64,000 nt of DNA from Chloroflexota bacterium (GCA_023381555.1 JAMCRV010000091.1:9556-73555); one strand, 5' to 3'; shown: positions 2,582 to 38,990, counted from the first letter of the stretch. Numbers and translations are program-made. The notes: generated by a model not told the origin, from the sequence alone.

Positions 2582-2607
2582 CCTTGCCGCTCCTGTCACA
2601 AACACGA

Positions 2608-3741: not shown

Positions 3742-3852
3742 TCACCACCCCTAGTCTACACATCGGGGCACGCGAGTGCTTGCAGGCAGCGCCGCACGAC
3801 CTAGCTCACCAGGTGTACGCCCACGACCACGAGCGGCAGTGCGCCTACAACA

Positions 3853-3986: not shown

Positions 3987-4101
3987 CTCTTCTCTTGTTC
4001 TGATCTTTTGTAAGGTTACCACACGATGCCCATCGCGCCATCCCTGCGGCCGCTTCGCCCAGGGTGGTTCTTCGTCCTTCGTGTTACACTCCCCAACATT
4101 G

Positions 4102-4173
4102 GGCGACGTGGCCAAGTGGTTAAGGCAGGGGTCTGCAAAACCCCTATCGGCGGTTCGATTCCGCCCGTCGCCT
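4102..4173 (+). tRNA. tRNA-Cys (anticodon GCA).
   Basis: It folds as a cloverleaf. The acceptor stem is GGCGACG/CGTCGCC, the D-arm is GCC-AAGTGGTTAA-GGC, the anticodon stem-loop is GGGGT-CTGCAAA-ACCCC, and the T-arm is GGCGG-TTCGATT-CCGCC. No CCA is encoded. Confidence 0.85.
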
Positions 4174-4223
4174 CCTCACGTTGACGCCGCTGGGTCCACC
4201 TGCCATGCTCTCTCCTGCAAACA

Positions 4224-5522: not shown

Positions 5523-5706
5523 GCGGCGTAGTACCACCGCACCAGCGACAGCACCCACGCTGTCAGTGACACGGGAGTATGCTAACCGCGGTACCCTCGT
5601 TCTCCCGACCCCGGTAGGCGTTCCCCGCCAGCGATCTGGCGATCTGGGCTTCCGACGCCGACACGTCGATGGCTGGCGCTCGAGGCTTACCGTCCCACTC
5701 GCGCGG

Positions 5707-7029
5707 TCAAGCGTCGCGATCGCTCCGGCCATCCTCGATGCGCAGAAGCGAGCCAATCTCCCGGACACGTGGAAGCACTCGCAAGCGTCTCACCGCTTCC
5801 TGCACCGAGGCTTCACGCGCGCGGTGGGTGAGGAGAACGATCTCTGCCGTCCTCCGCTCCGAGTCGCTCTCCTGTTGAATGAACGCGGCGATGCTGATGG
5901 CCAGAGAGCCAAACACCGTGGCAATCTCAGCGAGGACGCCGGGTTCATCCGAGACTGTCAGGCGGAAATAGTAACGCGTATCCAGTTCCTGGATCGATAG
6001 CACGCGGTTACCAGCTTCGATGCGAGCCTGTGTACGGTTGTTGACCCCCTTCCGAATATTGCGGGCGAGGTCGATCAGGTCGCCGGCTACAGCACTGGCC
6101 GTGGGGAAGCGGCCTGCTCCGCGTCCGTAGAGCAGTACCTGTCCAACGAGGTCACCCTCGATCTCGACCGCGTTGTAGACTCCGTTGACCTCCGAGAGCA
6201 ACTGCTGATGCGGAACGAGGGTTGGGTGCACTCGTGCCTCGATGCCGGAAGGGTGCTCACGAGCAATCGCTAGCAGCTTGATGGCGTATCCTAACTCACG
6301 CGCATAGCGGAAGTCACGTGCGGTCAACGTATCGATGCCTTGATGGTAGATCTGGTCAGGCGTTACCTCGGTATGGAACGCCAGTGATGAGAGGATCGCA
6401 AGCTTATAGGCCGCATCCAGGCCGGAGATATCGTTGAATGGGTCAGCCTCAGCGTATCCCAGGCGCTGGGCCTCCGCCAGAGCGTCGCGAAAGTCGATGC
6501 CTTCTTGGGACATCCTGGTGAGGATGTAGTTCGTGGTGCCATTGATGATGGCTCTCACTGACGAGATGTGGTTCGCGACAAAGTCGCGCTTGAATGGTCC
6601 AATAAGTGGCAGCCCACCGCCGACACTCGCCTCGTAGTACACATCGACGTTGTGTTGAGCAGCGAGCTCGAGTAAGCGGCGTCCGTGTTTTGCCATCACC
6701 TCTTTGTTAGCGGTCACGAGGTGCTTGCCTGCCTGGAGCGCTGCGCCCATGTAGGTGAGCGCTGGTTCCTCTCCACCCATGACTTCGACAACGACGTCAA
6801 TCGTCGGATCGCCAAGCACGTCTTGTGGATCGGTAGTGAGCACTGAACTCGGAATCTCCACTGGTCGAGGCTTTGTACGATCCCTCACCAGCGCTCGCGC
6901 TAGCTCAAGGTGGCAATCGAACAGGCGCGTGACCCGCTCCGCGCGCGTGATGACGAACTCAGCGACACCGCCCCCTACAGTCCCCAGTCCCAAGAGACCG
7001 ATGCGTAACTGCAATGGCTTCACTTCCAC
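5707..7029 (-). CDS. hom: Homoserine dehydrogenase with a C-terminal ACT domain.
   Basis: A Rossmann GLLGLGTVGGGV motif is present, the central domain is a conserved Hom catalytic region, and the C-terminus is an ACT domain (VSDEPGVLAEIATVFGSLAISI). Confidence 0.9.
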   Translation of the reverse strand: MEVKPLQLRIGLLGLGTVGGGVAEFVITRAERVTRLFDCHLELARALVRDRTKPRPVEIPSSVLTTDPQDVLGDPTIDVVVEVMGGEEPALTYMGAALQAGKHLVTANKEVMAKHGRRLLELAAQHNVDVYYEASVGGGLPLIGPFKRDFVANHISSVRAIINGTTNYILTRMSQEGIDFRDALAEAQRLGYAEADPFNDISGLDAAYKLAILSSLAFHTEVTPDQIYHQGIDTLTARDFRYARELGYAIKLLAIAREHPSGIEARVHPTLVPHQQLLSEVNGVYNAVEIEGDLVGQVLLYGRGAGRFPTASAVAGDLIDLARNIRKGVNNRTQARIEAGNRVLSIQELDTRYYFRLTVSDEPGVLAEIATVFGSLAISIAAFIQQESDSERRTAEIVLLTHRAREASVQEAVRRLRVLPRVREIGSLLRIEDGRSDRDA

Positions 7030-8192
7030 TGTCCCAAAGAACGGATGCGTTCCATAGCCTCCTCCAAGCGCAGGTCATCGATCGTCAACGACATGCGTAC
7101 GTAATTATCTCCCTGTGAGCCATAACCGACACCGGGAGTCACGACGACACCGGTCTTTTCGAGCAAGAGGCTGGCAAAGTCGATTGACCGCATCCCCGCG
7201 GGAATCGGCGCCCAGACGTAGAACGTAGCTTGTGGCTCATCGATCGGTAGACGGAGATTGCGCCAGGTCTCGACAACGAGATCGCGACGCCTACGATAGA
7301 TCTCGACCATACGGTGGATGTTGTCCTGCGGTCCCGTAAGGGCTGCGATCCCCGCCCGCTGCACCGCTCCAAAGATACCCGAATCGGTGTTTTCTTTGAC
7401 CTTACGCAGTGCGGCGATGATATCAGCGTTGCCGACCGCCATGCCAATGCGCCACCCCGTCATATTGTAGGGCTTAGAGAGCGAGTTGAATTCAACGAGA
7501 GGTGCATCCAGAGCGCCCGAGCAAAGCAGACTCGCCGGCTGCTCACCAAAGGCGATCTCACTGTACGGGCAATCGTTGACGACGATCGTGTCGTTCGAGC
7601 GTGACCACTCCGCCACCTCCTGCCAAAAGGATGATGGAGCCATAGCCGTGGTTGGGTTGTTAGGATAGTTGAGCCAGAGAATCTTGGCCCGGCGAGCCTG
7701 GTCGGTCGGGATATCCCTCAGTGCAGGAAGCCATCCTGTCGTTGCAGAGAGAGGTATCCGGATAATCTGAGCACCTGCAAAGATAGCGCTCGCAACGTAA
7801 GCAGGATACGCGGGATCCGGAATCAACGCGACGTCTCCTGGATTGAGATACGCGAGCGCAAGGTGGTGGTTTCCTTCCTTACTACCAATGAGGGCCAGCA
7901 CTTCGCGATCAGGGTCCAGCGAGACCGCAAACCGCTTCGCGTACCACTGCGCGACCGCCTGGCGGAACGACGTCATTCCACGCTCTTCATCGGGTGGATA
8001 CACGTGCATAGCCGGGTCGCGGGCCGCTCCATTGAGCGCATCGATGATGTGCCCAGGAGTCGGATGGTCAGGGTCTCCGACACCTAGGCTGATCACGTCG
8101 ATGCCTCGGGACCTGGCTTCCCGCTCCTTCTGACGAATCTGAACGAAGAGATAGGGTGGAAGCTGTTCGACTCTACCGGCTACGTGTACCAC
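7020..8192 (-). CDS. Class I PLP-dependent aminotransferase, most similar to LL-diaminopimelate aminotransferase (DapL type).
   Basis: The N-terminal motif LPPYLF...IDVISLGVGDPDHPTP is present. Other DapL-like matches are SKEGNHHLALAYLNPGDVALIPDPAYPAY and NYPNNPTTAMA. It overlaps the hom start by 10 bp. Confidence 0.6.
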   Translation of the reverse strand: MVHVAGRVEQLPPYLFVQIRQKEREARSRGIDVISLGVGDPDHPTPGHIIDALNGAARDPAMHVYPPDEERGMTSFRQAVAQWYAKRFAVSLDPDREVLALIGSKEGNHHLALAYLNPGDVALIPDPAYPAYVASAIFAGAQIIRIPLSATTGWLPALRDIPTDQARRAKILWLNYPNNPTTAMAPSSFWQEVAEWSRSNDTIVVNDCPYSEIAFGEQPASLLCSGALDAPLVEFNSLSKPYNMTGWRIGMAVGNADIIAALRKVKENTDSGIFGAVQRAGIAALTGPQDNIHRMVEIYRRRRDLVVETWRNLRLPIDEPQATFYVWAPIPAGMRSIDFASLLLEKTGVVVTPGVGYGSQGDNYVRMSLTIDDLRLEEAMERIRSLGQWK

Positions 8193-8272
8193 GCCTGCTG
8201 CTTCTCCTCAGCGCGAATCAACCACCACGTCACAACCGTGGCGAGTGTACCCGCAGAGCTAGCAGTGCGTCA

Positions 8273-10567
8273 TCACGCTGATCCATACCCACCCGACTGG
8301 ACAGTGGTGCTACTTCTCCACACTCTGAGCAGGGGCGCCACAAGGAGAACCGTGGCAATGGCAAGTGCCGTGAATGTGATCATGCCACCATAGAGCAGGA
8401 TTCTGGGCCGGTACGTCAAGGAGATGGTATGGCGTCCCGGCCCGATCTCCACACCAGATAACGCTCCATCAACCGGGAGCAACCGGGCCCGCCTCCCATC
8501 CACCGTGACGTGCCAGCCTGGGTAGTAAATCTGACTCCACACCAACAGCCCTTCGCCGGCGGTGGAAACCTCAGCGGTCAGATGTGTTGGGCTCGACTCG
8601 TGAACTTTCACCGTCTCATTACCAGGCTGTCCGAGAGGCAGCGGCAGTGGCGAATTGACTACCGCCATCTGGCCAACGTTACTCCGTCCGAGAATGCGCC
8701 ACACGTCTTGTCCGGAGCCAACCGCAACCTGATGCACGAGCCACGCCCGAGGCAGGCTGATCACTGGTGCCAGCCGGTAGAGGTGCAGTGGGCCGTCCGA
8801 GCCTAGAAGGGTCAGCGGCGCACCTGCAGGGAAGGTCCGCTTCGTCACGATATAGCGCACATTCAGTAGCATCTGACGCCGAGTGCCGTCGAGTAATCCT
8901 TGGGGCTGGGCGGCATTCATCGCGGCGAATGAGGAGAGCTCCAGAGGCGTGCTGCCGATCACGTCCTCGAGCCCGTAGATGAGGCCTTCATTGCCATCGG
9001 CAGGCAACGTTCCCTCAGTACTGACGCGAAAGGGACCATTCTTGCCGTGCTGCATCAGAGAGATAATCGTAAGCTCTGGATACGGTTGCAGATCTCCGGG
9101 TACCAATCCCCAGTAGCGATGCGCTGTAAAGAGCTCCACAATGGCGATCCCTATCAGGGCCACCAGTACGAACCGGCCGCGCCGCCCCAGAAGCATCCCG
9201 AGACCAATGATGAGGACGCTGATGATCACGAAGGCTGACAAACGGCGCACACCCAAGAGTGCTGCCTGTTGGGATGACTCACGGAGAATGGGCACTTTCG
9301 CCATCAGCTGCGCAAGAAAGAGGCCGGCCAGGACGAGAGCGGAGATGAGGAACAATGAGACGGACGTTCTGCTAGCGCTGGCCAGCAGCTCCCACAGGGC
9401 GCACATCCCGAGACCCGCAAGACAAGCAGCGGCAAAGGACACGAGGAGGATCGAGCGCTCCTGATCACGTACGAGGTTGAACCCTGGGAACACGTGATAC
9501 GCCACTGGATAGAGCGGTCCGTGTCCACCCAGGCTCATGAGCAGACCAAACGCACCAAGAATGACGAGCATTGGCCAGGGTCGCCAGTGCCAGGCGAAAA
9601 CTGCACCGAGACTCATAAGCACGACGGATGCCCCGACGTATGCCGGTGCAGCTGCTCCGAAACCGGAGTTGAGCACCGTCCCAAGTAGCTCATGCATCCT
9701 GAAACCGCCAGCCAGAAACGAGTACGGCTCTTTGTGACGGACCGTCAGAGGTACCATTTGTAGAGTCGGAAGCAGCTGGACCGCCCCCAGAGCGATACCA
9801 AGCGCAAGTCCTAACCCTGGTCTGGCGACGCTAGCTAGCTTGACACTCCACGGCCCCTTAGTGCGAAGAGAGCCAATGACAAGCCAGAGCGCTGCAGCAT
9901 AGCCTGTGTACAGCAAAGCCTGGGGATGACCACCGAGGATCGCGAGACCGAAACACAGTGCGAGCAGACCGAGAATCCAGGTAGCACTGGAATCCAATGA
10001 CAAGTCTACGAAGAGGAGGGTCCAAGGCAGCCAGGCTGAAACCTGGAGGATATCTGTATCCTGGAGAGGATAGGTCGTGAGATATCCACTCAGCTCGAAT
10101 GCGACAGCGGCCAAGGTGGCGCCAGCGAGGCGGGCGATCCACGGCAGTGATGAAGCGCGATCTCTGGTCAAGGCCAGAAGAAAGATCAGCGTGCCGGCTC
10201 CTGCGAATGCGATGTGAGCGAGTTCATCGACCACCAACATTCGCGGTGTGAGCAGCCGCTGCCCTCCAAGGAGGACCGCAAGGAGGAGGGTGGGTGGGTA
10301 GAAGCTATCGAATTGGATATCCGCGTCAGCTGGCTGGCCGGCATTGACGGCAGCCGCCCAGAGCGGGATGTGGCCGTGCTGATAGCTCGACACCACGAAG
10401 AAGTGCATCGGAAAGTGCACTTCTGAAAAGTCACCCAGGCGAATCGACCAACGTGCCGCAGTGTCTGGCGTCACAAGTGGCCAGAAGTACGTGACTGGCA
10501 AGGCACAAACCAGATTCACTGCCGCAAAGAAGACCAGCCACTTGACTACCCTGTGAGATCGCGGCAC
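8273..10567 (-). CDS. Large polytopic membrane protein, possibly a YfhO-like GT-C membrane glycosyltransferase.
   Basis: 764 aa. It has at least 12 predicted hydrophobic helices in the N-terminal two-thirds, a roughly 250-aa soluble C-terminal domain, and a final transmembrane helix. No catalytic motif was verified. Confidence 0.35.
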   Translation of the reverse strand: MPRSHRVVKWLVFFAAVNLVCALPVTYFWPLVTPDTAARWSIRLGDFSEVHFPMHFFVVSSYQHGHIPLWAAAVNAGQPADADIQFDSFYPPTLLLAVLLGGQRLLTPRMLVVDELAHIAFAGAGTLIFLLALTRDRASSLPWIARLAGATLAAVAFELSGYLTTYPLQDTDILQVSAWLPWTLLFVDLSLDSSATWILGLLALCFGLAILGGHPQALLYTGYAAALWLVIGSLRTKGPWSVKLASVARPGLGLALGIALGAVQLLPTLQMVPLTVRHKEPYSFLAGGFRMHELLGTVLNSGFGAAAPAYVGASVVLMSLGAVFAWHWRPWPMLVILGAFGLLMSLGGHGPLYPVAYHVFPGFNLVRDQERSILLVSFAAACLAGLGMCALWELLASASRTSVSLFLISALVLAGLFLAQLMAKVPILRESSQQAALLGVRRLSAFVIISVLIIGLGMLLGRRGRFVLVALIGIAIVELFTAHRYWGLVPGDLQPYPELTIISLMQHGKNGPFRVSTEGTLPADGNEGLIYGLEDVIGSTPLELSSFAAMNAAQPQGLLDGTRRQMLLNVRYIVTKRTFPAGAPLTLLGSDGPLHLYRLAPVISLPRAWLVHQVAVGSGQDVWRILGRSNVGQMAVVNSPLPLPLGQPGNETVKVHESSPTHLTAEVSTAGEGLLVWSQIYYPGWHVTVDGRRARLLPVDGALSGVEIGPGRHTISLTYRPRILLYGGMITFTALAIATVLLVAPLLRVWRSSTTVQSGGYGSA

Positions 10568-14882: not shown

Positions 14883-14967
14883 GCCGGAGTGGCGAAATGG
14901 CAGACGCAGCGGACTTAAAATCCGAGGCCGATGAGGCGTGCGGGTTCGACTCCCGCCTCCGGCACCA
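14883..14967 (+). tRNA. tRNA-Leu (anticodon TAA), type II with a long variable arm.
   Basis: The acceptor stem is GCCGGAG/CTCCGGC, the anticodon loop is CTTAAAA, and the T-arm is GGGTTCGACTCCC. The 3' CCA is encoded. Position 27:43 is a G:A mismatch. Confidence 0.85.
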
Positions 14968-17083: not shown

Positions 17084-17655
17084 ACCCTGTTTCGTCCAAC
17101 GAGGCGGATTGTAGATGAGTGTGGCCTCGAACCGCGGGCGGTCCTAGTTGCTCCTCTAGCCCTTGGCATAAGACCACCGATGCGTTGGCGGCCCGCACCT
17201 CTACGACCCCTGATGCAGCGGCCCGGTCCCAGCGACGGAGCAGTGCCGCGTTCATCTCCAGGACAGTGCGCGCTACCAGGCCCCAGCCCTGTTGACGGGC
17301 GTAGGCGGCGGTGCGCCAGGCGAAGCGTGGCGGCGTATAACAGTAGCAGACGTGAACCGCGTCCGGCCTTACCCTGACTCCCTTGGCGAAGGCGCTGGCG
17401 CTGGAGAGCACGACAGCGGCTTCTGGCCGCATGAGCCGGAAGGCCAGGGGGAAGAAGGGCAGCAGCAGTTGGTAGTAGCGCTTGCCGGGGTAGAATGGCT
17501 GCAGAAAGGAAGTCCGTACGCGCTCGCCCGGAATATCGTGATCAGTGTTCTTTGGATCGTAGAGAGACGTGTAGATCAGCGCGTCAGGATAGAGCTACGC
17601 CAGCGACAAGAAGATGCGCTCGGCGCCGCCTGGCTCAAGCTCGGACTAAGTTCAA
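16965..17655 (-). pseudogene. Remnant of a GT4 glycosyltransferase: N-terminal half only, interrupted by an in-frame TAG.
   Basis: Reverse-strand translation gives ...ERIFLSLA*LYPDALIYTSLYDPKNTDHDIPGERVRTSFLQPFYPGKRYYQLLLPFFPLAFRLMRPE...DAVHVCYCYTPPRFAWR. This has a GT4 N-domain pattern including the CY(C)HTPxRYAW motif. There is no C-terminal Rossmann half, and the sequence runs into the malQ 5' end. Confidence 0.5.
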
Positions 17656-18008
17656 GCAAATAGCAGGGCGTTCGAACCTGTATCGTCGGCCCGACGCGGC
17701 GTACACAGCTATTTAAGTACCACTGCTGCAGTAGATATCAATGCTCATCGTGAGCCAACGTTCCCAAGCGTCTTCCTGTCGGATCAAACCGCAACTGTAT
17801 CACATCATCATATGGTGTCAGTCCAGGCTCGACTTCATGTGCGCCACAAGTTCTTGCGCTGCTCAGTTGCTGTCCAGTGGAGCGATCCGCCGCGATGCAG
17901 TGCATTCGGCTACAATAGCTATGCCATTCCGTGACAAGTGGTGGATGTGCTGCCTTATAACTGGCAGTAGGAAACAGCGCTGTCTCGACTCTGCATATAT
18001 GCCGTTAG

Positions 18009-19217
18009 ATGGGTGGCGGAGCAAGTTCTGGAACGGGAGATGACGTTGCGCTCGCTGGTGGAAATAGTAGTCTGGCAGTGAACATACTCTATTGCGCCGT
18101 TGATCTGTTCGGCCTTGGTGGCGTGCAACGCTACTCTCGGTACGAAGCGAGTATTCTCGAACGAATGGTGCCGCCGGTGCGGCTGACAGCGGTGTCGCTC
18201 TTCGCGCCCCAGCAACACGACTACTTCGACCAGCCGCTTCCCAAGGAACTGACGAGCGCGCATGGCTCACGTCGCCGCTTCATGCTGGACTTGCTTGCCC
18301 AAGCTCGTTGCTCGCCCCCCGATCTGGTGATTGCCGATTACCTGCCTATGGGCCCATTCGCTCTCGCCATGGCCGCACGGTGGCGCGTCCCGTACATCAT
18401 CAACGTCTATGGACTGGAAGTATGGCGCCCCTTGCCAGCCAAATTCCGCGTCCCTTTGCTGCGCGCGACGGCCATCATGTCCGATTGCGTCTTCACGCAA
18501 CGCTACCTGCAGGCCCAGTATCGCCACCTGCCGCCTATCGCGGTGATTCAGGACCCCGTCGATTGCGATCGGTATCAACCGCGTGAGTACGACCCGGCAT
18601 ATCGCCGGCAGCTCGGTCTCAAGCATGGTCCGGTGCTGCTCACAGTATCACGCCTCAAGGCCGGGCGATCCAAGGGTCACGACGTAGTGTTGCGGGCAAT
18701 GGCGCAGTTGGTCGACACCTTTCCTTCGCTGCAGTATGTGATTGTCGGCGATGGCGATGATCGTCCGCGCCTGGAAGCGCTCGCAGTCTCCCTTGGACTG
18801 CGTGAACGCGTGGTGTTTACCGGACGACTGGATGACGGTGAGTTGCCGGCTGTCTACCACGCTTGTGATCTGTTTGTCCTGGTGAGCAGGTTCCGAGAGG
18901 GGAAGCAGGCGGCCGGCGAGGGTGTGCCGCTGGCTGTGCTTGAAGCGCAAGCCTCGGGTAGGGCGGCCATTACCAGCAAGTTGGATGGCTCTGCCGAGTC
19001 AATCGTCGACGGTGAGACTGGGCTGTTGGTTGATCCGCACAGCGTCGACGAGGTAGCTGGTGCGATCGCTCGGTTGCTTGGCGACCCGGCGTTGCTCCGC
19101 AGTATGAGTGCGCGGGCAGCCGGCGCTGCCAGACAGCGAAATGGTCTACCCGTCTTCGCAATGAAGCTGACAAGGCTCATCGAATTGGTCACATCGAAGG
19201 AAGTGCGTGTCTCGTGA
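18009..19217 (+). CDS. GT4-family glycosyltransferase (GT-B fold).
   Basis: The C-terminal domain has the GT4 signature (EGVPLAVLEAQASGRAAITSKLDGSAESIVDGETGLLVDP). It is the first gene of a glycan cluster that follows a lower-GC promoter region. Confidence 0.8.
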   Translation: MGGGASSGTGDDVALAGGNSSLAVNILYCAVDLFGLGGVQRYSRYEASILERMVPPVRLTAVSLFAPQQHDYFDQPLPKELTSAHGSRRRFMLDLLAQARCSPPDLVIADYLPMGPFALAMAARWRVPYIINVYGLEVWRPLPAKFRVPLLRATAIMSDCVFTQRYLQAQYRHLPPIAVIQDPVDCDRYQPREYDPAYRRQLGLKHGPVLLTVSRLKAGRSKGHDVVLRAMAQLVDTFPSLQYVIVGDGDDRPRLEALAVSLGLRERVVFTGRLDDGELPAVYHACDLFVLVSRFREGKQAAGEGVPLAVLEAQASGRAAITSKLDGSAESIVDGETGLLVDPHSVDEVAGAIARLLGDPALLRSMSARAAGAARQRNGLPVFAMKLTRLIELVTSKEVRVS

Positions 19218-20350
19218 GTAATGATAAGTTTATGCCGATTGCGGAACCATCGCTGTCCCATCTGGAGTTGCAGTACGTCACCGACGCGGTGCGTAGCGGC
19301 TGGGTGTCATCGAAGGGCCCGTTCGTCGACCGCTTTGAACAGAGCCTGGCCGAGTACCTGGGCGCACGGTTTGCCGTATCCACGTGCAACGGCACTGCGG
19401 CGTTGCATCTGGCTCTTGCAGCGCTCGGCGTTGGTCCGGGCGACGAGGTTATCGTACCAACCCTGACATTCATCGCGACCGCCAACGCAGTGCGCTATGT
19501 CGGCGCCACGCCTGTGCTGTGTGATGTCGATTCCAGCACCTGGTGCATGCGCGCCGCTGATGCTGCACCGCTGCTGACGTCGCGTACGAAGGCAATCATC
19601 CCAGTGCATCTTTACGGCCACCCCGCAGATATGGACGATATCTGTGCTCTGGCCGCGCATCATAACCTCCTCGTGGTGGAAGATGCAGCGGAAGCCCTTG
19701 GTGCATGCTATAAGCAACGTAAGGTAGGAACGATCGGCCATGCTAGTGTCTTCAGCTTCTATGGTAACAAAATGATTACCACGGGAGAGGGCGGCATGCT
19801 GGTCACAGATGATCCGGATCTATATCAACGAGCCAGAGTCTTGCGCGATCACGGGATGGATCCCGATCGACGCTACTGGCATCCGTGGATCGGCTTCAAC
19901 TTCCGATTGACAAACCTGCAGGCAGCGCTAGGTGTAGCGCAGCTTACCCGTATTGACGACCTGCTCGGCGCGAAGATTTCCAATGCACAGGCGTACCGCA
20001 GAATATTAGCCGGCATTCCCGGCGTGGAGCCCCAGCGGGAGCAGGAATGGGCAGCGAGCTCCTGGTGGATGTTCTCCGTGACCCTAGGCGAGGAGTTGGC
20101 AATGACTCCCAACGAGCTTGCCAGACGATTGCGTGAGCGGGGCATTGACTCGCGGCCGGTTTTTCACCCGATCCATCACATGCCGCCGTACCACCAGGAT
20201 CTGCGGCTGCCAGTGAGCGAACGCATTGCGCGTACCGGATTGAGCCTGCCCAGCGGCGCGCTATTAACTCAAGGAGATGTAGAACGGGTGTGCGTCGAGA
20301 TTGAATGCGCCCTGCGCGCAAACTCTAGCGAGAGTCTGCTAGGGTCGTGA
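19214..20350 (+). CDS. DegT/DnrJ/EryC1/StrS-family PLP-dependent sugar aminotransferase.
   Basis: DegT signature segments are present (VTDAVRSGWVSSKGPFVDRFE...FAVSTCNGTAALHLAL). The GTG start overlaps the upstream stop (GTGA); the conserved start is more likely MPIAEPSL at 19232. Confidence 0.85.
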   Translation: MSNDKFMPIAEPSLSHLELQYVTDAVRSGWVSSKGPFVDRFEQSLAEYLGARFAVSTCNGTAALHLALAALGVGPGDEVIVPTLTFIATANAVRYVGATPVLCDVDSSTWCMRAADAAPLLTSRTKAIIPVHLYGHPADMDDICALAAHHNLLVVEDAAEALGACYKQRKVGTIGHASVFSFYGNKMITTGEGGMLVTDDPDLYQRARVLRDHGMDPDRRYWHPWIGFNFRLTNLQAALGVAQLTRIDDLLGAKISNAQAYRRILAGIPGVEPQREQEWAASSWWMFSVTLGEELAMTPNELARRLRERGIDSRPVFHPIHHMPPYHQDLRLPVSERIARTGLSLPSGALLTQGDVERVCVEIECALRANSSESLLGS

Positions 20351-20368
20351 CCATTATGAGGACGGCTA

Positions 20369-21625
20369 GTGTTGAGGGCTTCCGTATTGCCTACGCTAAG
20401 GTCCACCGTAGAATGCGATAATGTGCATATTCTCCAGGTCGCTCCAGGATATACGCCATACGTCGGCGCCGCCGTAAACCTCGTGCGCTCGCTTAGAGGG
20501 CAGTGGATTAACCTTGGCCACCGCGTCACGTTAGTCGCTCCAAAGCCACACCCCAGACTGCAATGGATGCGCGAGGCGACTGCCGACAGCGGAGATGATG
20601 GATTGGGTAGAGTTGCTCGCGTGCCTCTCCTGTTTGCCAGCCGCCGTGGTGTCTGGATCGTTTCCGCGCCGCGCTTCTACCATACTATTCGTCACATCTG
20701 CCGGACCGACCGCCCTGATGTCGTTTTTGTCCACTACGTTCCCTGGAACTGCCTTGGATGGGCCGCCTATATGGCAGCTCATCCGCTCAATATTCCAGTC
20801 GTTGCGCGCGTTCATGACATTTATCGCCCAGTTGGTATGAAGGACCGCTTCTTCGATCTGGTGAATAACCGTGCATTGCTGCCCCGGCTAAGCCACATCG
20901 AGGCGACGAACCAGAGTTCGCGTTGCTACCTCTCGCGTACGTACAGTATCGCCGACAACCGCGTGCTCATCAGACCCAATGGCCTTAACCTCGACCGGTA
21001 TCGGCCTCTTGGTCAGGCGCTAGAGAGTGGGAATTGCGCACCAACAATTTGTTATGTTGGGGCGCTGAACGGGCATCGAGGACTTGAGCAAATGGCAGCA
21101 ATTTACGCCCGCGTGCGGGCGAAGGTGTCTGACTGCAAGTTGCTGATCATTGGAGATGGTGCTGGCAGGCAGCAGTTGCTCGCGGAGGCCGACCGTCTGG
21201 GCATTACCGACAGCATAGAAATCACCGGTGCATTATCTGTGCCCTTGATGGTCAATCGGTTGCGCGACGTGCATGTCGGTCTCGGTACATTCGATACTGC
21301 CAGCAACTACGCTGAGTTCCAGATGCTCACAAAAGCGCTGGACTATACCGCGATGGGCATCCCCTGGGTGTCCTTCAGCACCCCCGGCGTCCAGGATCTT
21401 TGTCACAGCGTCGGATCCGGGATAGCCGTTCCAGCCGATATCGAGGTGGCAGCCGAAACCGTGGCAGCGCTGCTCCTAAATAAAAATATGCGGCGCGACA
21501 TGGCCCATCGCGGTCTCAGCAATATCGAGCGCTACGACTGGCGGCGGCAGGCAGAACAGATCGCGGACGACATGAAGCGGGCTGTCATCTCTTCTCGGGA
21601 ACAGCGAACAAAGGAGGGGGGATAA
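20369..21625 (+). CDS. GT4-family glycosyltransferase.
   Basis: Conserved GT4 Rossmann halves are present, including LLIIGDGAGRQQLLAEADRLGITDSIEITG. Confidence 0.75.
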   Translation: MLRASVLPTLRSTVECDNVHILQVAPGYTPYVGAAVNLVRSLRGQWINLGHRVTLVAPKPHPRLQWMREATADSGDDGLGRVARVPLLFASRRGVWIVSAPRFYHTIRHICRTDRPDVVFVHYVPWNCLGWAAYMAAHPLNIPVVARVHDIYRPVGMKDRFFDLVNNRALLPRLSHIEATNQSSRCYLSRTYSIADNRVLIRPNGLNLDRYRPLGQALESGNCAPTICYVGALNGHRGLEQMAAIYARVRAKVSDCKLLIIGDGAGRQQLLAEADRLGITDSIEITGALSVPLMVNRLRDVHVGLGTFDTASNYAEFQMLTKALDYTAMGIPWVSFSTPGVQDLCHSVGSGIAVPADIEVAAETVAALLLNKNMRRDMAHRGLSNIERYDWRRQAEQIADDMKRAVISSREQRTKEGG

Positions 21626-21630
21626 CAGCG

Positions 21631-22773
21631 GTGATTCACGTCGTCATCGCTTCGAAAAGTTATACATTGCGGACATTTCAGGAGCAGCTGGCCTGTGTGG
21701 CAGAGGCACCGGATATCCGCATCACGCTGCTCAGCCCGGCTGGGTGGCCAAGCATGCCACTTGAGTCCCTTATGACACATCACCCGAGAGTCGATATCCA
21801 GTTGCTGCCGTCGCTCTTCCTTGGGAAGCACGCCTTGTGGTCTATGCCGAGTTGCTATCCGGCTCTACGACGCTTGCGACCGGACATTTTACACTTCGAT
21901 GAGTTCTACACCGTTCATTCGTTTCTCTCTTCTTTTAGCGGCATGCTGTATGGGATTCCCTCTATTTTCAGCACCTATCAGAACATCTACCGGCAATATC
22001 CACTCCCGTTCTCTGCGATCGAGCGCTTTGTGCTGAGGCATTCTTCCGGCGCTATCGCACATAGCGAGGGTGCCGCCTCCGTTCTCCGGCGGAAGGGGTT
22101 CAAAGGGAGGACGGTGATAACGCAGGATCTTGGGGTAGATACGGCGCTTTTTACACCAGGTCCACGCAGGCAAATGGCACTGCCGTACGAACAACTCAGA
22201 GTGGGCTTTGCCGGCCGGTTGGTCCGTGCCAAGGGCGTGGACGTGCTGGTTGACGCGTTCGCGCGCCTGGCTCCCGGGCCCCATCTCTATCTTGCCGGTG
22301 ACGGCCCCCTTGGGGCGGAGCTCCAACAGATCATCGCGAGACTGCACACCGAAGGACGCGTGCATTTGTTTGGTCATCAGCCGTCAAGTAGAATGGCAGT
22401 GTTTATGAACGAAGTTGACGTCCTCGTGTTGCCGTCGCGGACGACCCTAACCTGGAAAGAGCAATTCGGACGGGTTCTGGTGGAGGCGATGGCAACCGGC
22501 ATGCCGGTTCTTGGATCAGATAGCGGTGAGATCCCGGCGGTTATTGGCGATGCAGGACTCATCCACCGCGAAGGAGATGCTGAACAACTCGCGGCGCAGC
22601 TCGCGGGTGTCCTGCAAGATGATGCGCTGCGCCGGAGTCTGGGGGATGCGGCACGACGGCGCGCGACCGAGAATTACGATACGCGCCATCTGGCACACCG
22701 GCGTGCGGCGTTCTATCGATCTGTTGTAGGCACTCCCACGCCGTCAAAGGGGGTGCCGCCAGTTGCGCCATAG
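21631..22773 (+). CDS. GT4-family glycosyltransferase.
   Basis: A GT4 C-domain signature is present (GRLVRAKGVDVLVDAF...LAGDGPLGAELQ...EQFGRVLVEAMATGMPVLGSDSGEIP). It has a GTG start with a strong AAGGAGGGGGG ribosome-binding site. Confidence 0.8.
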   Translation: MIHVVIASKSYTLRTFQEQLACVAEAPDIRITLLSPAGWPSMPLESLMTHHPRVDIQLLPSLFLGKHALWSMPSCYPALRRLRPDILHFDEFYTVHSFLSSFSGMLYGIPSIFSTYQNIYRQYPLPFSAIERFVLRHSSGAIAHSEGAASVLRRKGFKGRTVITQDLGVDTALFTPGPRRQMALPYEQLRVGFAGRLVRAKGVDVLVDAFARLAPGPHLYLAGDGPLGAELQQIIARLHTEGRVHLFGHQPSSRMAVFMNEVDVLVLPSRTTLTWKEQFGRVLVEAMATGMPVLGSDSGEIPAVIGDAGLIHREGDAEQLAAQLAGVLQDDALRRSLGDAARRRATENYDTRHLAHRRAAFYRSVVGTPTPSKGVPPVAP

Positions 22774-23011
22774 GGAATACCGGCTATCTGCTGATAATTT
22801 GGTGGGCCTGCTGCGGTTCTTGGCGTTCCGTTTCAGGCATCCGGGACGGGCCGCCGGAGACCTGGTGTATTTGGGATCAGGGGCCCACATCGTCTTTGAG
22901 CGGTCAGGGCGGCTTGAGATCGGGCAAGGCGCCTATATCGGCCGCGACTTTGATGCCTACTGTGGCGGCAAACTCCGGAACGGAAGGACGTGCCGGCCGT
23001 CTTGCACATAG
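22763..23011 (+). pseudogene. N-terminal fragment of a hexapeptide-repeat (LbH) acyl/acetyltransferase, in the WcaF / maltose O-acetyltransferase-like family.
   Basis: The sequence LVGLLRFLAFRFRHPGRAAGDLVYLGSGAHIVFERSGRLEIGQGAYIGRDFDAY has the characteristic LbH N-terminal pattern. It stops after ~80 aa and is directly fused to the next fragment. Confidence 0.45.
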
Positions 23012-23322
23012 CGGACTACGTCCTCGTCCCGTCGTGGCAAGAGCCATTCGGCCTGGTCGTCATCGAGGCGATGGCTGCCGGCAAGGTGGTCATCGCAACC
23101 AACGTCGGCGGGCCGAGCGAGGTCATACGAGATGGAGAGACGGGCTTTCTCATCTCTCCCCACTCGGGAGACGCAATCGCCGCGGCCGTCGTGCGCTGCA
23201 TTCAGCAACCCGCGCAAGCCAGCCAGATCGCCCGAGCCGCACAGCGGGACGTGGCGCAGCGCTTCAGCTTGGACGCCTTCGCGGGCGCGCTGATCCGGGT
23301 ATACGCATCGGCTATGGCGTGA
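22990..23322 (+). pseudogene. C-terminal ~110-aa fragment of a GT4 glycosyltransferase.
   Basis: ADYVLVPSWQEPFGLVVIEAMAAGKVVIATNVGGPSEVIRDGETGFLISP is the GT4 C-terminal E-x7-E region. No N-terminal domain is present. Confidence 0.55.
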
Positions 23323-23344
23323 TAATGGAAAGGGAAGCTGCCTG

Positions 23345-24505
23345 ATGGCGGCCGGTGGTGAGCGTACGCTCACGTACTCATTCCTCAGCAAGCTCGGCGG
23401 CAAGAGCATGTCGGCAGCGGCCCACGTCGACGTGTCTACTTTGATCCGTGACGGATGGCGCGGAGAAGTACTGGCTCCCTCTTTTGCGCGGCCGGTGCAG
23501 GGCGCGTGGCGCCAGCGCTCTACCATGCCGGGCTTCGCACCGATCGTGTACCGCATGCCCAACTTCAAACAGGATTGGGGTGGCTTTGTGCGTGACACGC
23601 TGCACGACGCACTGGCGGCACGACTGATGACCGGTTCGGCTGTCTTCCACGGTTGGGCCAGGGGGTCATCCCGCTCACTTGAGCGTGCGCGTGCGTTCGG
23701 CGCTTTCTGCATCATCGAGATCGCCACGTCCCACGCCGCCGAGCAGAACGCGCTGCTCAACCGGGAGCGGCGGGAGTTTGGCTACACCGAGCGTCCGGAG
23801 CATCATCCGTGGAGCCTCAAGCGACACGAGGCGGAGTATGCAGCGGCCGACGCTGTCCTGGTCTGGTCAACGGCGGCGCGGGACTCGTTTCTAGCGCGCG
23901 GTATGGCGGCTGGGAAGGTCTTCCTGCATCCTCCGCGCTACAGCTTTCGTGCCCGTGCTAGCAGCGAGCGCGCACCGGCCAGTCCTCTGCGCGTGCTGTT
24001 CGTCGGCCAGGTCTGTCTCCGTAAGGGCGTACATTACCTCCTCCAGGCTTGGGAGTTGCTGCGCCATCCCTCGGCAGAACTCTGGCTCTGCGGCGATGTA
24101 GGAGCTGACATCCAGCCCTATCTGCGTAGCCATCCTCTACCCGGTAGTGTGAAGTTGACCGGTTTTGTGCAGGATCCTTCGCCCCTCTTCGAAGCGGCTA
24201 CGGTGTTCGTCTTGCCGTCGATTGAGGACGGATTTGGACTCGTTGTGGCCGAGGCGATGAGCTACGGAGTACCCGTTGTTGTGAGCGAGAACGTCGGCGC
24301 GCGCGATCTCGTGCGCGATGGCGAGTCCGGTGTGGTGGTGCCGATCCGGAACGCCGCTGCTCTGGCCCAGGCGCTGGAGCGATTGCTTTCGGCGCCCGAC
24401 GCGGCGCTGGGGATGGGAGCAAGAGGGCGGGATCTGTTAGCCGAACGCGCCGCGCGCAGCCCATCGATCGCCGGTATTTACGACAAACTGCTTCACCAGA
24501 GGTGA
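23345..24505 (+). CDS. GT4-family glycosyltransferase.
   Basis: A GT4 signature is present (LRVLFVGQVCLRKGVHYLL...VFVLPSIEDGFGLVVAEAMSYGVPVVVSENVGARDLVRDGESGVVVP). Confidence 0.8.
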   Translation: MAAGGERTLTYSFLSKLGGKSMSAAAHVDVSTLIRDGWRGEVLAPSFARPVQGAWRQRSTMPGFAPIVYRMPNFKQDWGGFVRDTLHDALAARLMTGSAVFHGWARGSSRSLERARAFGAFCIIEIATSHAAEQNALLNRERREFGYTERPEHHPWSLKRHEAEYAAADAVLVWSTAARDSFLARGMAAGKVFLHPPRYSFRARASSERAPASPLRVLFVGQVCLRKGVHYLLQAWELLRHPSAELWLCGDVGADIQPYLRSHPLPGSVKLTGFVQDPSPLFEAATVFVLPSIEDGFGLVVAEAMSYGVPVVVSENVGARDLVRDGESGVVVPIRNAAALAQALERLLSAPDAALGMGARGRDLLAERAARSPSIAGIYDKLLHQR

Positions 24506-24586
24506 GGCTCCGGAGCATTTCATGACCCCTGCCGAACAGTTTGGCGTATCACGATTGGAAGCCGTTCTCAGCAAGAAGGGGTGTAT

Positions 24587-25573
24587 ATGACGACCCGGAC
24601 GGGACTGGACACTCTCGAGGAGGCATTGAAGTGCGTGGTCGACTACGGGCTGCACATCGGCTTGCTCGTCCCACCGCTCTGGTCATTTTTGGAAGGCGCC
24701 ACGGTGTGGGCCGGCCACCGCTGGCCCGACTCCCGAATCACAGGAGCGCTGGCATTTCGTCTAAGGGAAGTATCGCTTCGCTGGTCGCCTTCGGCCATTT
24801 CAAGAGTGGCCATGCTACCAACCGGCGCTCGCTTGGCTCTGTCCCTGCAAGACTATTATCACTACCGTCTGTACTTCACAGGCCTGTTCGAACCTGGCAC
24901 AACGGCGCTGGTGAGGAAACTGCTTCGACCTAACGATGTCTTCATCGATATTGGCGCGAACATCGGTTTCTATTCCTGCACCGCTGCTGCACTTCAGGCC
25001 CGCGTCCACGCCTTCGAGCCGAACCCGTCCCTCTCCCGGTTTCTCGAACAGTCCCGAGTTCTCAACGGCTGGGGCGAGCGGCTGACGGTCAACACGTGCG
25101 CAGTTGCGTCCACTGCAGGCCGGGCCGAGTTCTTCTTGAGCACAAACCAGGAGAACAGCGGGCTCTCTTCCTTACTCCCCCTAGATCACCTGTCGACTGC
25201 CGAAAAGCTCGTTGTGCCGACAACGACGCTCGACGCCTATTGCTCCGCGCATGGCATCGATCACGTCCGACTCATCAAGATAGATGTCGAAGGCGGCGAG
25301 CGGGACGTCCTAACCGGCGCTGCGCGGGTCCTGCAAGACGTCCGGCCGGACGCCGTCATCTGTGAGCTCAGCAGCTTCGGCGGCGGTAGCAAACCCGCTG
25401 ACGTCTTGCATCTTCTCGAGGAGGCCGGCTACGTTCCCTACGAGATCGCTGAAAATGGAAACGGTCTACTGCGCACCTACTCGGGCATGGAAACGGAGAC
25501 GAACTGGGGACCACCCAACCTGTGCTTCCTTAGGGGCAGCCCCGCCGAGCTTGGGCTGATCAGCGCTTGCTGA
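24587..25573 (+). CDS. FkbM-family SAM-dependent methyltransferase.
   Basis: An FkbM-family glycine-rich SAM motif is present (VFIDIGANIGFYS) along with downstream FkbM-family features. The ATG at 24587 has a ribosome-binding site; the ORF track begins at 24581 (GTG). Confidence 0.8.
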   Translation: MTTRTGLDTLEEALKCVVDYGLHIGLLVPPLWSFLEGATVWAGHRWPDSRITGALAFRLREVSLRWSPSAISRVAMLPTGARLALSLQDYYHYRLYFTGLFEPGTTALVRKLLRPNDVFIDIGANIGFYSCTAAALQARVHAFEPNPSLSRFLEQSRVLNGWGERLTVNTCAVASTAGRAEFFLSTNQENSGLSSLLPLDHLSTAEKLVVPTTTLDAYCSAHGIDHVRLIKIDVEGGERDVLTGAARVLQDVRPDAVICELSSFGGGSKPADVLHLLEEAGYVPYEIAENGNGLLRTYSGMETETNWGPPNLCFLRGSPAELGLISAC

Positions 25574-25646
25574 GCGTAGCATACAGCGCGGCGACCTGGG
25601 CAGCAGTGGCTTGCACTGTGAATTGTTCCTGAACTCGACGCCGGCC

Positions 25647-25697
25647 CGCGCGATCTCGTGCGCGATGGCGAGTCCAGTGTGGTGGTGCCGTCCGCGA
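25647..25697 (+). repeat. Near-exact duplicate (~50 bp) of an internal segment of the GT4 gene at 24300-24350.
   Basis: The segment CGCGCGATCTCGTGCGCGATGGCGAGTCC(A/G)GTGTGGTGGTGCCG occurs at both loci with 2-3 mismatches. The second copy lies outside any GT reading frame, at the junction with a transposase fragment. Confidence 0.7.
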
Positions 25698-25699
25698 CG

Positions 25700-25995
25700 G
25701 TACCGGCCAACATCTGGTAGTCGATGGGCACGCCACCCGCTGCCGTCACCGTCGCGGCGATCTCCACCTGCTGGCAGTCGGGACGGTGATCCCGGCTGTA
25801 GCCATAGGTCATGAGCTCCGCCTCCTCGTAGGCGCCAAAGAAGCTGATGGAGGTGAGGTCATAGCAGAGTTGCGACCGGTCCAGGTCAAACGTCACGATC
25901 GCCCGCAGGACCACCTCCTGCCACAGCTCGTCGCGGTGCGGGACCAGGGCATCAAGCGTCCGCGCCAGCCGGTCATCGTTCGCCTGCCCCGCCAT
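25700..25995 (-). mobile_element. Fragment of an IS1634/IS4-family DDE transposase.
   Basis: ...LTSISFFGAYEEAELMTYGYSRDHRPDCQQVEIAATVTAAGGVPIDYQ matches the conserved IS1634 G(Y/H)SKDHRPDLKQ region. Only about 100 aa are recognisable; the rest of the listed ORF (25477-25700) is antisense of unrelated sequence. Confidence 0.45.
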
Positions 25996-26059
25996 CGAAA
26001 AGCCACGGCTCGAACCGCACCTTGTCCGCAGAACTAGTGCGCTCGGTCCCTTGTAAGCC

Positions 26060-26608
26060 CTATTTTGTCACAATCTGCTGTTGCAATTCAGCCTCCGAAA
26101 GCGTCGCGGGAAGATCTGGTGATTCGGGATCTAGACGCTTCAGCGTGCCGTTCTGGTCAAGGTACAACCCTGGACTGCCACCAACAGGGATGTACTGGTC
26201 CGTGTCCCGGCCTGGCCCGAAAGTGAAGCGTTGGAGGAACACGACGTAAGAGCTACCGGACTGTACCAGTGGGGCTGAGTCCGTCAACCTGACATTGCCG
26301 CTCAGACTCCCCATCTGCCGCAGCTTGATCGACGGTCCATTCACGGATCCACGCAGAAATTGGTCCACCCTTACCACGGTGACCGTGTAGGGAATGGTAC
26401 CAATCGGTTCAACCGAGCGTGTATTGGTCGCGGTGACGCGAGCGACCGCCACCGCCTCGCTGTTCAGCTCTTGAAGCGAATGATAGTTCTTGAGCCTACT
26501 TGCCTCGATGAACTGGGGCGGCGTGCTGCCCGTAGCACTCTGACTACACGCGGCAAGTGAGATAATGGACGCAAATAGGAGGGCAAAAAGGACACGGGAG
26601 CGCCACAT
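26060..26608 (-). CDS. Hypothetical secreted lipoprotein.
   Basis: It has a signal peptide with a lipobox (LFALLFASIISLAAC). No recognisable domain was found. It is followed by an unusually AT-rich 50-bp upstream region at 26609-26660. Confidence 0.4.
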   Translation of the reverse strand: MWRSRVLFALLFASIISLAACSQSATGSTPPQFIEASRLKNYHSLQELNSEAVAVARVTATNTRSVEPIGTIPYTVTVVRVDQFLRGSVNGPSIKLRQMGSLSGNVRLTDSAPLVQSGSSYVVFLQRFTFGPGRDTDQYIPVGGSPGLYLDQNGTLKRLDPESPDLPATLSEAELQQQIVTK

Positions 26609-26642
26609 ATGATCCGCCTTTCCTCACTAATATATAGAGTTT

Positions 26643-27296
26643 ATGCCGTTGATATCATCTTGTTGGCCAGATATGGTCGCTGTTTCCTTCTCCGACCGCG
26701 TCGCTCCCCTGCGCGCCTTCGTCGAGGCAGGCCTTATCCTCGACCCCTGGCTGGCAGGGCTGGGCGAGGACTACTTTGCCTTCGGCAGCCAGGAGCTACT
26801 CTACCAGTTCAACCACTTCGCTGACTGGGACACGCAAGCGGCCAAGATCGCACCCGCTGCCGGCGACTATCGTCGTGCCTTCACCGCCTTCACCGGCATC
26901 GGACCAGGCATGCACGTGCTGGAGGCCGTCGTCAGCCTGGCCTATTGGGCCGGCCTGCGCATCAGCGAGATCGCCGCGCTGCGCAGCGCCGACTGCGACC
27001 TCAACCAGCGCGCCGGTGCGCTGCGGTTGGTCGACGCCAAAGGCGGCAAGACGCGCACCATCGACCTGCACAACCAGGCCCGCCGAGCACTCTTGGCCTA
27101 CTTACACGCGCCGGCCGGCACCTCCGATAGCCGGGATCCGGAAAGCGGGTACGTCTTCACGAGCCAGCGCGCGGCCTGGTTGCGCCAACAGGGCCGGCCA
27201 GACCATCTCTCGATGCGCGGCATCGAGCACCTCTGGCGTGGTCTCACGGCGCAGGCCACGCACGAAGAGTGGGCGGCGCTCCAGGGCGCGCTCTAG
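26643..27296 (+). pseudogene. Degenerate tyrosine recombinase (phage integrase/Xer-like), catalytic-domain fragment.
   Basis: The phage-integrase catalytic domain pattern is present through box I and the K region (LAYWAGLRISEIAALRSADCDLNQRAGALRLVDAKGGKTRTIDLHNQARRALLAYL...VFTSQRA). The N-terminal core-binding domain is missing, and the C-terminal HxxR...Y region is poorly conserved. Confidence 0.5.
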
Positions 27297-27299
27297 AAT

Positions 27300-27311
27300 G
27301 AAGTGCAACAC
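27300..27311. repeat. Left 12-bp inverted repeat (GAAGTGCAACAC), paired with 28057-28068.
   Basis: The reverse complement of AGTGTTGCACTTC (28056-28068) matches GAAGTGCAACACC (27300-27312) at 12 of 13 positions. Together they bracket the partial IS30 transposase ORF with ~770 bp between them. Confidence 0.5.
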
Positions 27312-28076
27312 CTCCGGTCCAAGGATGGCGGAGGTGAGCGAATGGGGGTAAGGAAGTGGTCACCAGAGCAGGTGGCCGGGAGGTCGCGGATGGGCTATCC
27401 CGAGGACAAGCAGTGGCACGTCTCCCATGAGACCATCTACCAGTTCATTTATGCCTATCCGGTGGGCGAGCTGCGCAGGGCGCTGGTAGCGGCGCTGCGC
27501 AAAGGCCACTCGAAGCGCAAGCCCAGGAGCCGTGGACAAGACCGGCGGGGGCAACTGCGGAATATGCGTTCCATCCGGGAACGTCCGGAGGAGGCCCAGG
27601 ACCGCGAGATACCGGGCCACTGGGAAGGTGACTTCATCAAGGGGGCATACAACGGCAGCGCCATTGGCACCCTGGTGGAACGCAGCAGCCGTTTTGTGCT
27701 TCTGGCCAGGATGGAGGGCACCGATGCCGACGCGGCCCTGGAGGGGTTCACCAGACGCCTGCGCAGCTTGCCCAAATCCGTCTTGCATACCCTCACCTAT
27801 GACCAGGGCAAGGAGATGGCGCGGCACGAGGAGCTGGAGCGCAAGGCTGACCCGCATAGTCCCTGGCAGCGCCCGACCAATGAGAATACCAATGGTCTGT
27901 TACGCCAGTATTTCCCCAAGGGAACGGATTTATCGGGATATTCGCAGCGGCACTTGACGCAGGTGGCGGAGGAACTCAATAATCGCCCAAGGAAATCCTT
28001 GGGATTCCGAACACCAGCCGAAGTAATGGCGCAACAAATCAGGCAGTTAAACAGCAGTGTTGCACTTCAAATTTGA
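27303..28076 (+). mobile_element. Partial IS30-family transposase gene; the N-terminal HTH region is missing.
   Basis: The DDE region is present (HWEGDFI...TYDQGKEMARH...SPWQRPTNENTNGLLRQYFPKGTDLSGYS). At 257 aa it is shorter than full-length IS30 transposases (~320-380 aa), and it starts at GTG inside the left inverted repeat. Confidence 0.8.
28057..28068. repeat. Right inverted repeat of the IS30-like element.
   Basis: See the left repeat. It is adjacent to the palindrome TTCAAATTTGAA (28066-28077), which overlaps the transposase stop. Confidence 0.5.
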
Positions 28077-28106
28077 AACCGCCCCCTCAAAAAATGCCGG
28101 CTCCCC

Positions 28107-38802: not shown

Positions 38803-38940
38803 AAGCCTCTTTCTCGCACCGTGGCCTCAGCCAACTAACCCTCTAGCATCCAGTGACGCTGCCATCACGTCGCGCTCCAGCGAGCACCTGAGGATGTAGC
38901 ACACTGGTGTTAGCAGGTCAAAGTGGCAAGCACGATAGCA

Positions 38941-38977
38941 AGCAGAGCTGGACCTAATGCGTAGGTCCAGCTCTGCT
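38941..38977. terminator. Perfect 15-bp-stem hairpin 14 nt downstream of the copZ stop.
   Basis: AGCAGAGCTGGACCT-AATGCGT-AGGTCCAGCTCTGCT. There is no clear U-tract, so it could be a terminator or a protein-binding palindrome. Confidence 0.5.
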
Positions 38978-38990
38978 TCCTCCGGCTACC

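Follow-up and report, generated by a model that had tools for sequence, protein, structure and literature searches.

The question raised by this locus is whether a group of broken transposase and recombinase genes beside a glycan gene cluster represents the vehicle that imported the cluster, a system that still functions, or decay. The locus lies within a 64,000-nucleotide (nt) stretch of DNA, hereafter the window, from a Chloroflexi metagenome-assembled genome (MAG) with strain heterogeneity (GCA_023381555.1, JAMCRV010000091.1:9556-73555), and is bordered by the end of a glycosyltransferase/FkbM gene cluster on one side and by a solute-binding-protein gene on the other. From 25.57 to 28.11 kb, the window contains no fewer than six gene remnants plus an additional transposon end, and the sole intact gene is that of a lipoprotein. 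The original prediction, drawn from the sequence alone, had described a mobile-element graveyard, which was right and even understated; every item that it listed was present at its place, far beyond chance, and several details are corrected below. We consider it very probable that the stretch at 25.57-28.11 kb, whose pieces were each identified independently, is the inactive residue of a series of transposon insertions and deletions. The stretch is an ordinary though unusually layered transposon graveyard, and its components are new members of known families, namely IST3091-like IS30, the TnpI-type Tn3 family and IS1634. None of the elements can move autonomously, because the recombinase lacks catalytic residues and the IS30 product lacks its helix-turn-helix (HTH) domains together with seven residues of the catalytic core.

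The position 27284-28084(+) is occupied by an internally deleted, IST3091-like element of the IS30 insertion sequence (IS) family. Its open reading frame (ORF) at 27303-28076(+) matched the profile NF033563 with an E value of 4.3e-80 and 269 bits against a cut-off of 80, covering profile positions 52-267 of 267. The closest relatives are transposases of 337 amino acids (aa), with 91% aa identity to P0001 and 88% to IST3091 of Acidithiobacillus ferrooxidans. At the DNA level, the whole remnant was 86% identical to the IST3091 copies on A. ferrooxidans plasmids and 91% identical to a full-length copy in a global alignment. Both terminal inverted repeats are intact (left, 27284-27311; right, 28057-28084), and the ends of the element (GGGCGCGCTCTAGAATGAAGTGCAACAC ... 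GTGTTGCACTTCAAATTTGAAACCGCCC) mark where the sequences around three independent full-length copies (L085, L087 and L088) begin to diverge. The length of 801 bp, compared to 1080 bp for the full-length element, results from two internal in-frame deletions. The first removed 258 nt (joint 27347/27352) right after the native second codon, with the loss of codons ~3-90 and both HTH domains, and the second removed 21 nt (joint 27845/27846), with the loss of VGIRIYF before the second catalytic Asp. The native ATG at 27342 is in frame with an ORF that extends to 28076 and ends inside the right repeat. When the product was searched against Pfam, only rve was found, while full-length relatives carry PF13936/PF13384. 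The expected partial IS30 transposase without its HTH region was thus found to lack that region as foreseen, but it is internally deleted rather than truncated at an end, both repeats being intact.

Compared to the full-length copy, the remnant carries 66 substitutions, distributed over the three codon positions as 11, 9 and 46. Their concentration at the third position indicates that this copy was still functional while it diverged and was inactivated only afterwards. No target-site duplication of 2-3 nt was found at the flanks (left, CAG; right, CCC), which fits deletion or recombination between two IS30 copies. As both terminal repeats are intact, the remnant could, judging from its sequence, be mobilised in trans by a full-length copy. 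The DNA identity of 86-91% to copies in Acidithiobacillus and other Proteobacteria-like contexts suggests that the IS crossed from one phylum to another fairly recently, probably among members of one community. Neither the IS30 ORF nor the long-form solute-binding-protein ORF was on record when looked up as an exact protein. Separately, a promoter-like site (TTGACG, 18 nt, AATAAT; 10 of 12 matches) was observed at 27954-27983(+) in the 3' end of the IS30 element, facing the solute-binding-protein gene.

The left end of the IS30 element cuts a gene for a tyrosine recombinase. The ORF at 26643-27296(+) matched the Pfam family Phage_integrase (E=1.3e-10, profile positions 24-124 of 172), and within it an internal fragment of a TnpI-like recombinase, codons ~139-260 of 323, was delimited at 26918-27285(+). 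These 368 nt align without gaps to nt 414-781 of the 972-nt gene in the locus L093, with ~89% nt identity and with 84-89% aa identity to its product P0122, and correspond to 38% of tnpI. The full-length homologs are XerC/XerD-like proteins of 318-330 aa with an N-terminal SAM-like domain, to which 53-59% of the query could be aligned. The fragment keeps the Arg-I (LRISE) and Lys (KGGKTR) regions and is without HxxR, H/W and Tyr. At the protein level, the alignment ends with ...EEWAALQ, where the homolog continues with ACTFHDLRH, containing the HxxR box, and the point of the cut is the left end of IS30. Therefore, the earlier description of a Xer/integrase gene without its N-terminal domain holds for a partial catalytic domain, but the C-terminal region, which had been called degenerate, is absent.

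The context of the full-length relatives reveals what kind of recombinase this was. The gene of P0122 is located 20 nt upstream of a co-oriented gene for a 1010-aa transposase with DUF4158 and DDE_Tnp_Tn3 domains, and this pair is bracketed by 40-nt inverted repeats (starting with GGGG and ending with TAAG), which together form a Tn3-family transposon of 4.35 kb. The homolog P0159, from a Ktedonobacteraceae MAG, is likewise encoded 20 nt upstream of a Tn3 transposase, and the annotated plasmid 3 of Rubrobacter radiotolerans (NZ_CP007517) shows the order class-I S-adenosylmethionine (SAM) methyltransferase, tyrosine recombinase and Tn3 family transposase. In Tn4430-type elements, the tyrosine recombinase TnpI resolves cointegrates at IRS (PMC2847244). 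Because its full-length relatives are encoded directly upstream of Tn3-family transposases, we read the recombinase, on sequence grounds, as a TnpI-type cointegrate resolvase and not as an island integrase. We also observed that positions 634-9012 of the Rubrobacter plasmid constitute a Tn3-family transposon with 29-nt inverted repeats, the cargo of which comprises ArsR, a P-type ATPase, a ZIP transporter and the SAM methyltransferase, along with the TnpI-like recombinase and TnpA.

On the other side of the IS30 element, a Tn3-family terminal inverted repeat is preserved in its outer 23 nt at positions 28084-28106(-) (GGGGAGCCGGCATTTTTTGAGGG), with one mismatch to the 40-nt repeat of L093. It was the single match in the window, directly after the right end of IS30, and no match was obtained in 100 shuffles. 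It marks where the recombinase-bearing transposon ended on the right. Because IS30 is flanked by the tnpI fragment on one side and by the terminal repeat on the other, it is nested within what is left of a single Tn3-family transposon, and these remains are taken to show that a Tn3-family transposon with a TnpI-like tyrosine recombinase as its putative resolvase once lay here. By the scale of L093, ~3.3 kb is missing: tnpI has lost its 3' portion, tnpA is gone entirely, and the terminal repeat lacks its inner portion. In keeping with the general biology of IS30, this loss would be explained by an adjacent deletion mediated by IS30 or by two copies of IS30 recombining with each other. When the L093 TnpA was used in tblastn, no match was found in the window at E<0.05, and there were no remnants of its 417-aa neighbour either. 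In a search for the left transposon end, no site in the window reached 24 of 40 matches, and the L093 inverted repeat was not found at the other loci, whether of the lipoprotein or of the recombinase. The repeat ends at 28106, and 24 nt separate it from the solute-binding-protein gene, which is annotated as starting at 28131 and whose native upstream region has been displaced by the transposon end.

Since the sequence derives from a MAG, the contig might instead be a chimera joined across a repeated IS30, in which case the two flanks of the element would not be neighbours in any real genome. The missing target-site duplication would suit a mis-join, as would the first 44 nt of the element, which are identical to other copies, and a Logan unitig (k=31) that stops 30 nt into the left repeat. 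In addition, the same bin holds a second allele of the right flank: a contig of 23,287 nt (MCL4508655-660; P0264, P0266, P0271 and P0274) contains a second set of genes for the solute-binding protein, adenylosuccinate lyase, galactokinase and nucleoside monophosphate kinase, with 95-96% protein identity as measured for the first two. However, one type of Tn3-family transposon has left parts in both flanks, tnpI on the left and the repeat on the right, matching the single element in L093, which makes a random mis-join unlikely. Moreover, the IS30 copy differs from known copies by ~9% and by two private deletions, and long k-mers would not collapse it. The Logan unitig (run SRR10244963) is 100% identical to positions 17502-27314 of the window and independently reproduces the junction between the left flank and the left repeat. 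On balance, we regard the chimeric contig as unlikely and a nested IS30 in one Tn3-family transposon as the better description. The break of the unitig was also considered as a sign of multiple IS30 copies; this was rejected, as the run is a metagenome that includes a related organism, and other genomes may be the source of the shared 31-mers.

The first ~90 codons of the recombinase ORF were without recombinase homologs. A phmmer search against 1.8 billion representatives matched them in two stretches to P0250 (E=2.8e-16); the matches are class-I SAM methyltransferases of ~495 aa with Pfam methyltransferase domains. Using phmmer, Pfam and tblastn together, we assigned 26688-26917(+) to a SAM-methyltransferase gene composed of two pieces joined in frame. 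In tblastn, aa 13-50 of P0250 correspond to 26688-26801 and aa 227-~270 (to 274) to 26799-26917, and both pieces share the frame of the recombinase. At the joint between the methyltransferase and tnpI, the 8 nt GCTGGAGG open the tnpI homology block and encode the LE at which the methyltransferase match ends. One deletion would have joined the methyltransferase gene to the middle of tnpI, and another would have removed the middle of the methyltransferase gene. Accordingly, the NCBI protein P0121, annotated as 'tyrosine-type recombinase/integrase', is a chimeric pseudogene in which a methyltransferase is fused to tnpI.

The preserved frames raise the question of whether part of the debris has a function, for instance the HTH-less IS30 product as a trans inhibitor like Tn5 Inh, the methyltransferase-recombinase chimera as an expressed protein, or both. 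All four deletion joints keep the native frame, the native IS30 start codon is kept in frame, the chimera is annotated as a protein by NCBI, and a promoter-like site is found at 26649-26677(+). Nevertheless, the IS30 product has also lost the 7 residues beside the second catalytic Asp, and the chimera has no recombinase catalytic residue after the Lys and retains the methyltransferase fold only to 'VLE'. Other HTH-less IS30 proteins in the databases do not share the joints, and there is no second copy on which selection could be tested. We therefore find a functional role extremely improbable and treat both ORFs as debris. The possibility that the HTH-less database proteins form a conserved derivative was rejected, as their N-termini differ and resemble truncations by gene callers.

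At the left edge of the debris, the ORF at 25477-25995(-) matched the NCBIfam profile NF033559 with an E value of 1.7e-24, which bears out the IS1634/IS4-type fragment with the GYSRDHRPD motif of the original prediction. Only profile positions 89-196 of 483 were covered (aa 6-107, ~25675-25980), and the score of 86.8 bits is below the curated cut-off of 100, so that the fragment does not qualify as a full-length transposase. We delimited this internal fragment of an IS1634-family transposase at 25675-25995(-). It is ~40% identical to annotated plasmid-borne IS1634-family transposases, measures ~0.3 kb, and lacks the N-terminus and the entire DDE domain; no element ends were identified. The remainder of the ORF is antisense to the end of the FkbM gene and to a short remnant of a GT4 glycosyltransferase gene. 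This remnant, 58 nt at 25638-25695(+) and translating to ...DAGPRDLVRDGESSVVVPS, lies between the FkbM gene and the IS1634 fragment and abuts the latter, and 53 nt of it are 94% identical to 24291-24343 within the intact GT4 gene at 23345-24505. Its position against the IS1634 fragment indicates that the glycan cluster formerly extended further and was truncated there. Mechanistically, an IS1634 copy would have inserted into an additional GT4 gene or beside it and been cut by deletions to a 0.3-kb internal piece. The elements thus eroded and truncated the distal edge of the glycan cluster. In addition, the 110-aa ORF at 22990-23322(+), located between two full GT4 genes, encodes no more of a GT4 glycosyltransferase than its C-terminal half (…EPFGLVVIEAMAAG…). 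This ORF has 75% nt similarity to 22453-22508 and adds a second case of glycosyltransferase decay within the cluster.

Whether the recombinase and the IS elements are instead what is left of a vehicle that brought in the glycan cluster at 17-28 kb, as the original prediction had thought probable, be it an integrase-borne island or a composite transposon, can be judged from the surroundings. The debris is situated exactly at the end of the cluster with a GT4 remnant embedded in it, a tRNA-Leu gene lies upstream at 14883-14967, and the proteins of the cluster have no counterpart of at least 90% identity in any other genome of the collection. However, the housekeeping proteins of the left flank (MetRS and MalQ) are also without such counterparts, and the lack is thus not specific to the cluster. 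The recombinase lineage is the Tn3-associated resolvase type, and the window copy is a fragment. The hypothesis of a tRNA-Leu att site was rejected because the tRNA 3' end does not recur, and a scan for repeats over 14.5-29 kb revealed no att-like direct repeat bracketing the block. The G+C content of the cluster, 0.603, equals that of its flanks, 0.596 and 0.599, and no second IS30, IS1634 or Tn3 end occurs beyond the opposite edge of the cluster at any place in the window. The claim of a vehicle is therefore unsupported and such an origin very unlikely; there is no sign that the elements delivered the glycan cluster. The 'integrase beside a glycan island' is a transposon resolvase remnant, with no evidence of island integration, and the notion of a distal island boundary holds only in the limited sense that the GT4 remnant marks a truncation. 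In wider searches, the best match to the adenylosuccinate lyase among GTDB species representatives was 69% identical, on a contig that ends 100 nt past the gene, and the best match to FkbM in contigs of JGI metagenomes was 39% identical.

The remaining layer consists of the lipoprotein gene and what precedes it. The gene at 26060-26608(-), defined by its ORF and by alignment, is intact and encodes 182 aa with the lipobox LAAC, confirming the embedded lipoprotein gene that had been noted before. Its product, like the recombinase fragment, is 100% identical to an NCBI MAG protein from a 73.6-kb contig. Its family comprises only nine homologs in 5.8 billion proteins. An AlphaFold2 model was obtained with a pLDDT of 74.5 and a pTM of 0.71, and its best Foldseek matches in the PDB were agrin NtA, TIMP-1/2/3, PCOLCE NTR and complement C345C, with E values from 2.7e-4 to 4e-3. 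The TM-scores were modest, at 0.36-0.39 when normalised to the query and about 0.4-0.5 when normalised to the target, and a sequence-profile search of the family against the PDB gave no match even at E=10. From the model, the lipoprotein is tentatively predicted to adopt an NTR/TIMP-like oligonucleotide/oligosaccharide-binding (OB) fold.

Upstream of the lipoprotein gene, positions 26627-26674(-) contain the last ~15 codons and the stop codon of a Peptidase_M10 (matrixin-like) gene (…QQDDINGINSIY, then stop), detected via tblastn with the M10 proteins of the loci L090 and L092 (85% identity over 13 aa, E=0.001). In L090, L091 and L092, the M10 gene is located 13 nt upstream of the lipoprotein homolog, leaving no room for a promoter, and in the window the tail is 18 nt upstream of the lipoprotein start. 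Two further lipoprotein homologs, in the loci L178 and L179, have no M10 neighbour. The M10 tail is the remnant of the upstream operon partner of the lipoprotein, and one deletion would have removed all but 15 codons of the peptidase gene; no remnant of its N-terminal part was found in the window by tblastn. This also explains the short AT-rich stretch that had been pointed out earlier, which was borne out at 26609-26674 with a G+C content of 38%, compared to 60% for the window: it is the end of the deleted M10 gene together with the operon spacer before the lipoprotein start. In L090 (9407-9984) and L091 (1810-2387), it was observed that the M10 gene is split over three frames by two frameshifts while the lipoprotein gene is intact. 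A related MAG thus offers a second case of protease loss with the lipoprotein kept.

Considering that the M10-lipoprotein locus of L090 adjoins a rib operon that is 89-98% identical in protein to that at 195-3701 of the window, while the L090 lipoprotein is only 64% identical to the window lipoprotein, we conclude that the latter is not syntenic and is a second, divergent copy located elsewhere. Another lipoprotein homolog adjoins a different Tn3-type recombinase/transposase module. Given the non-syntenic divergent lipoprotein, the homolog beside a Tn3 module and the gene order on the Rubrobacter plasmid, the methyltransferase gene and the M10-lipoprotein pair were probably the cargo of one or more transposons and not native genes. 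A more specific idea, which we put forward tentatively and hold to be possible rather than likely, is that the lipoprotein with a TIMP/NTR fold and a secreted, matrixin-like (M10) peptidase of ~195 aa form a two-gene cargo module of Tn3-family transposons in Chloroflexota, a distant counterpart of mtz-tim that has been orphaned here. In Listeria monocytogenes, mtz-tim encodes a secreted metzincin and a TIMP-like lipoprotein and is of mobile-element origin (PMC8235301), and the potempins of Tannerella are lipoprotein inhibitors encoded beside KLIKK peptidases (PMC9890683). If the idea is true, this rare, transposon-associated lipoprotein family of nine members, with its TIMP-like predicted fold and its small M10 peptidase as a genetic partner, would extend the theme of the Listeria pair to another phylum.

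Several points weigh against the picture of decay by insertion and deletion. All four internal deletion joints preserve the frame, for which the chance is ~1 in 81 (a post hoc figure), and the decay model gives no explanation for this. The left end of the Tn3-family transposon is absent, so that its original extent and cargo are inferred, and the order of the insertion and deletion events is not recoverable. The bin also mixes two related strains or species, which brings a small risk of a mis-join across IS30. With these points included, inactive debris is still the reading that we consider very probable.

Outside the debris, a few other features of the window were recorded. A flavin mononucleotide (FMN) riboswitch was identified at 3851-3986(-) with 95 bits, before the ribD-ribE-ribBA-ribH operon at 195-3701(-), and this operon has 89-98% protein identity to that of the MAG GCA_023381895.1. 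The window also has genes for tRNA-Cys(GCA) at 4102-4175(+) and tRNA-Leu(UAA) at 14883-14967(+), and ~560 nt between the latter and malQ are non-coding. A near-perfect 20-nt hairpin is located at 38937-38981, with arms that are 95% complementary and a 5-nt loop.

Compared to known systems, the IS30 remnant resembles the IST3091/ISCARN114 group of A. ferrooxidans and A. thiooxidans in its transposase core, DNA identity and terminal repeats. Unlike IST3091, it resides in a Chloroflexi MAG rather than in Acidithiobacillia, is reduced to 801 bp, has no target-site duplication and is not self-transposing. The IS1634 family shares the GYSRDHRPD region with the window fragment, which covers only profile positions 89-196 of 483. 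The Tn3-family remains differ from the Tn4430 type in that the window is without tnpA, a resolution site and a left end, and the likeness to the Tn4430 TnpI is one of gene arrangement. In that arrangement they agree with the TnpI type of Tn4430 and Tn5401, as the recombinase lineage is encoded directly upstream of the transposase, in the same direction and within the terminal repeats. For the lipoprotein, no sequence similarity to TIMPs or to any solved structure was found. Unlike TIMPs, its family has only one conserved Cys, and the inhibitory ridge of TIMP Cys1-Cys70 is not reproduced; unlike in mtz-tim, the protease gene in the window has been cut to 15 codons, leaving the lipoprotein orphaned. 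The likeness to Listeria Tim is by description, and the resemblance to TIMP/NTR proteins is at the level of the predicted structure only. What the lipoprotein family has in common with mtz-tim and the potempins is the lipobox, homologs encoded directly after a small M10 metzincin gene, and an association with transposon modules.

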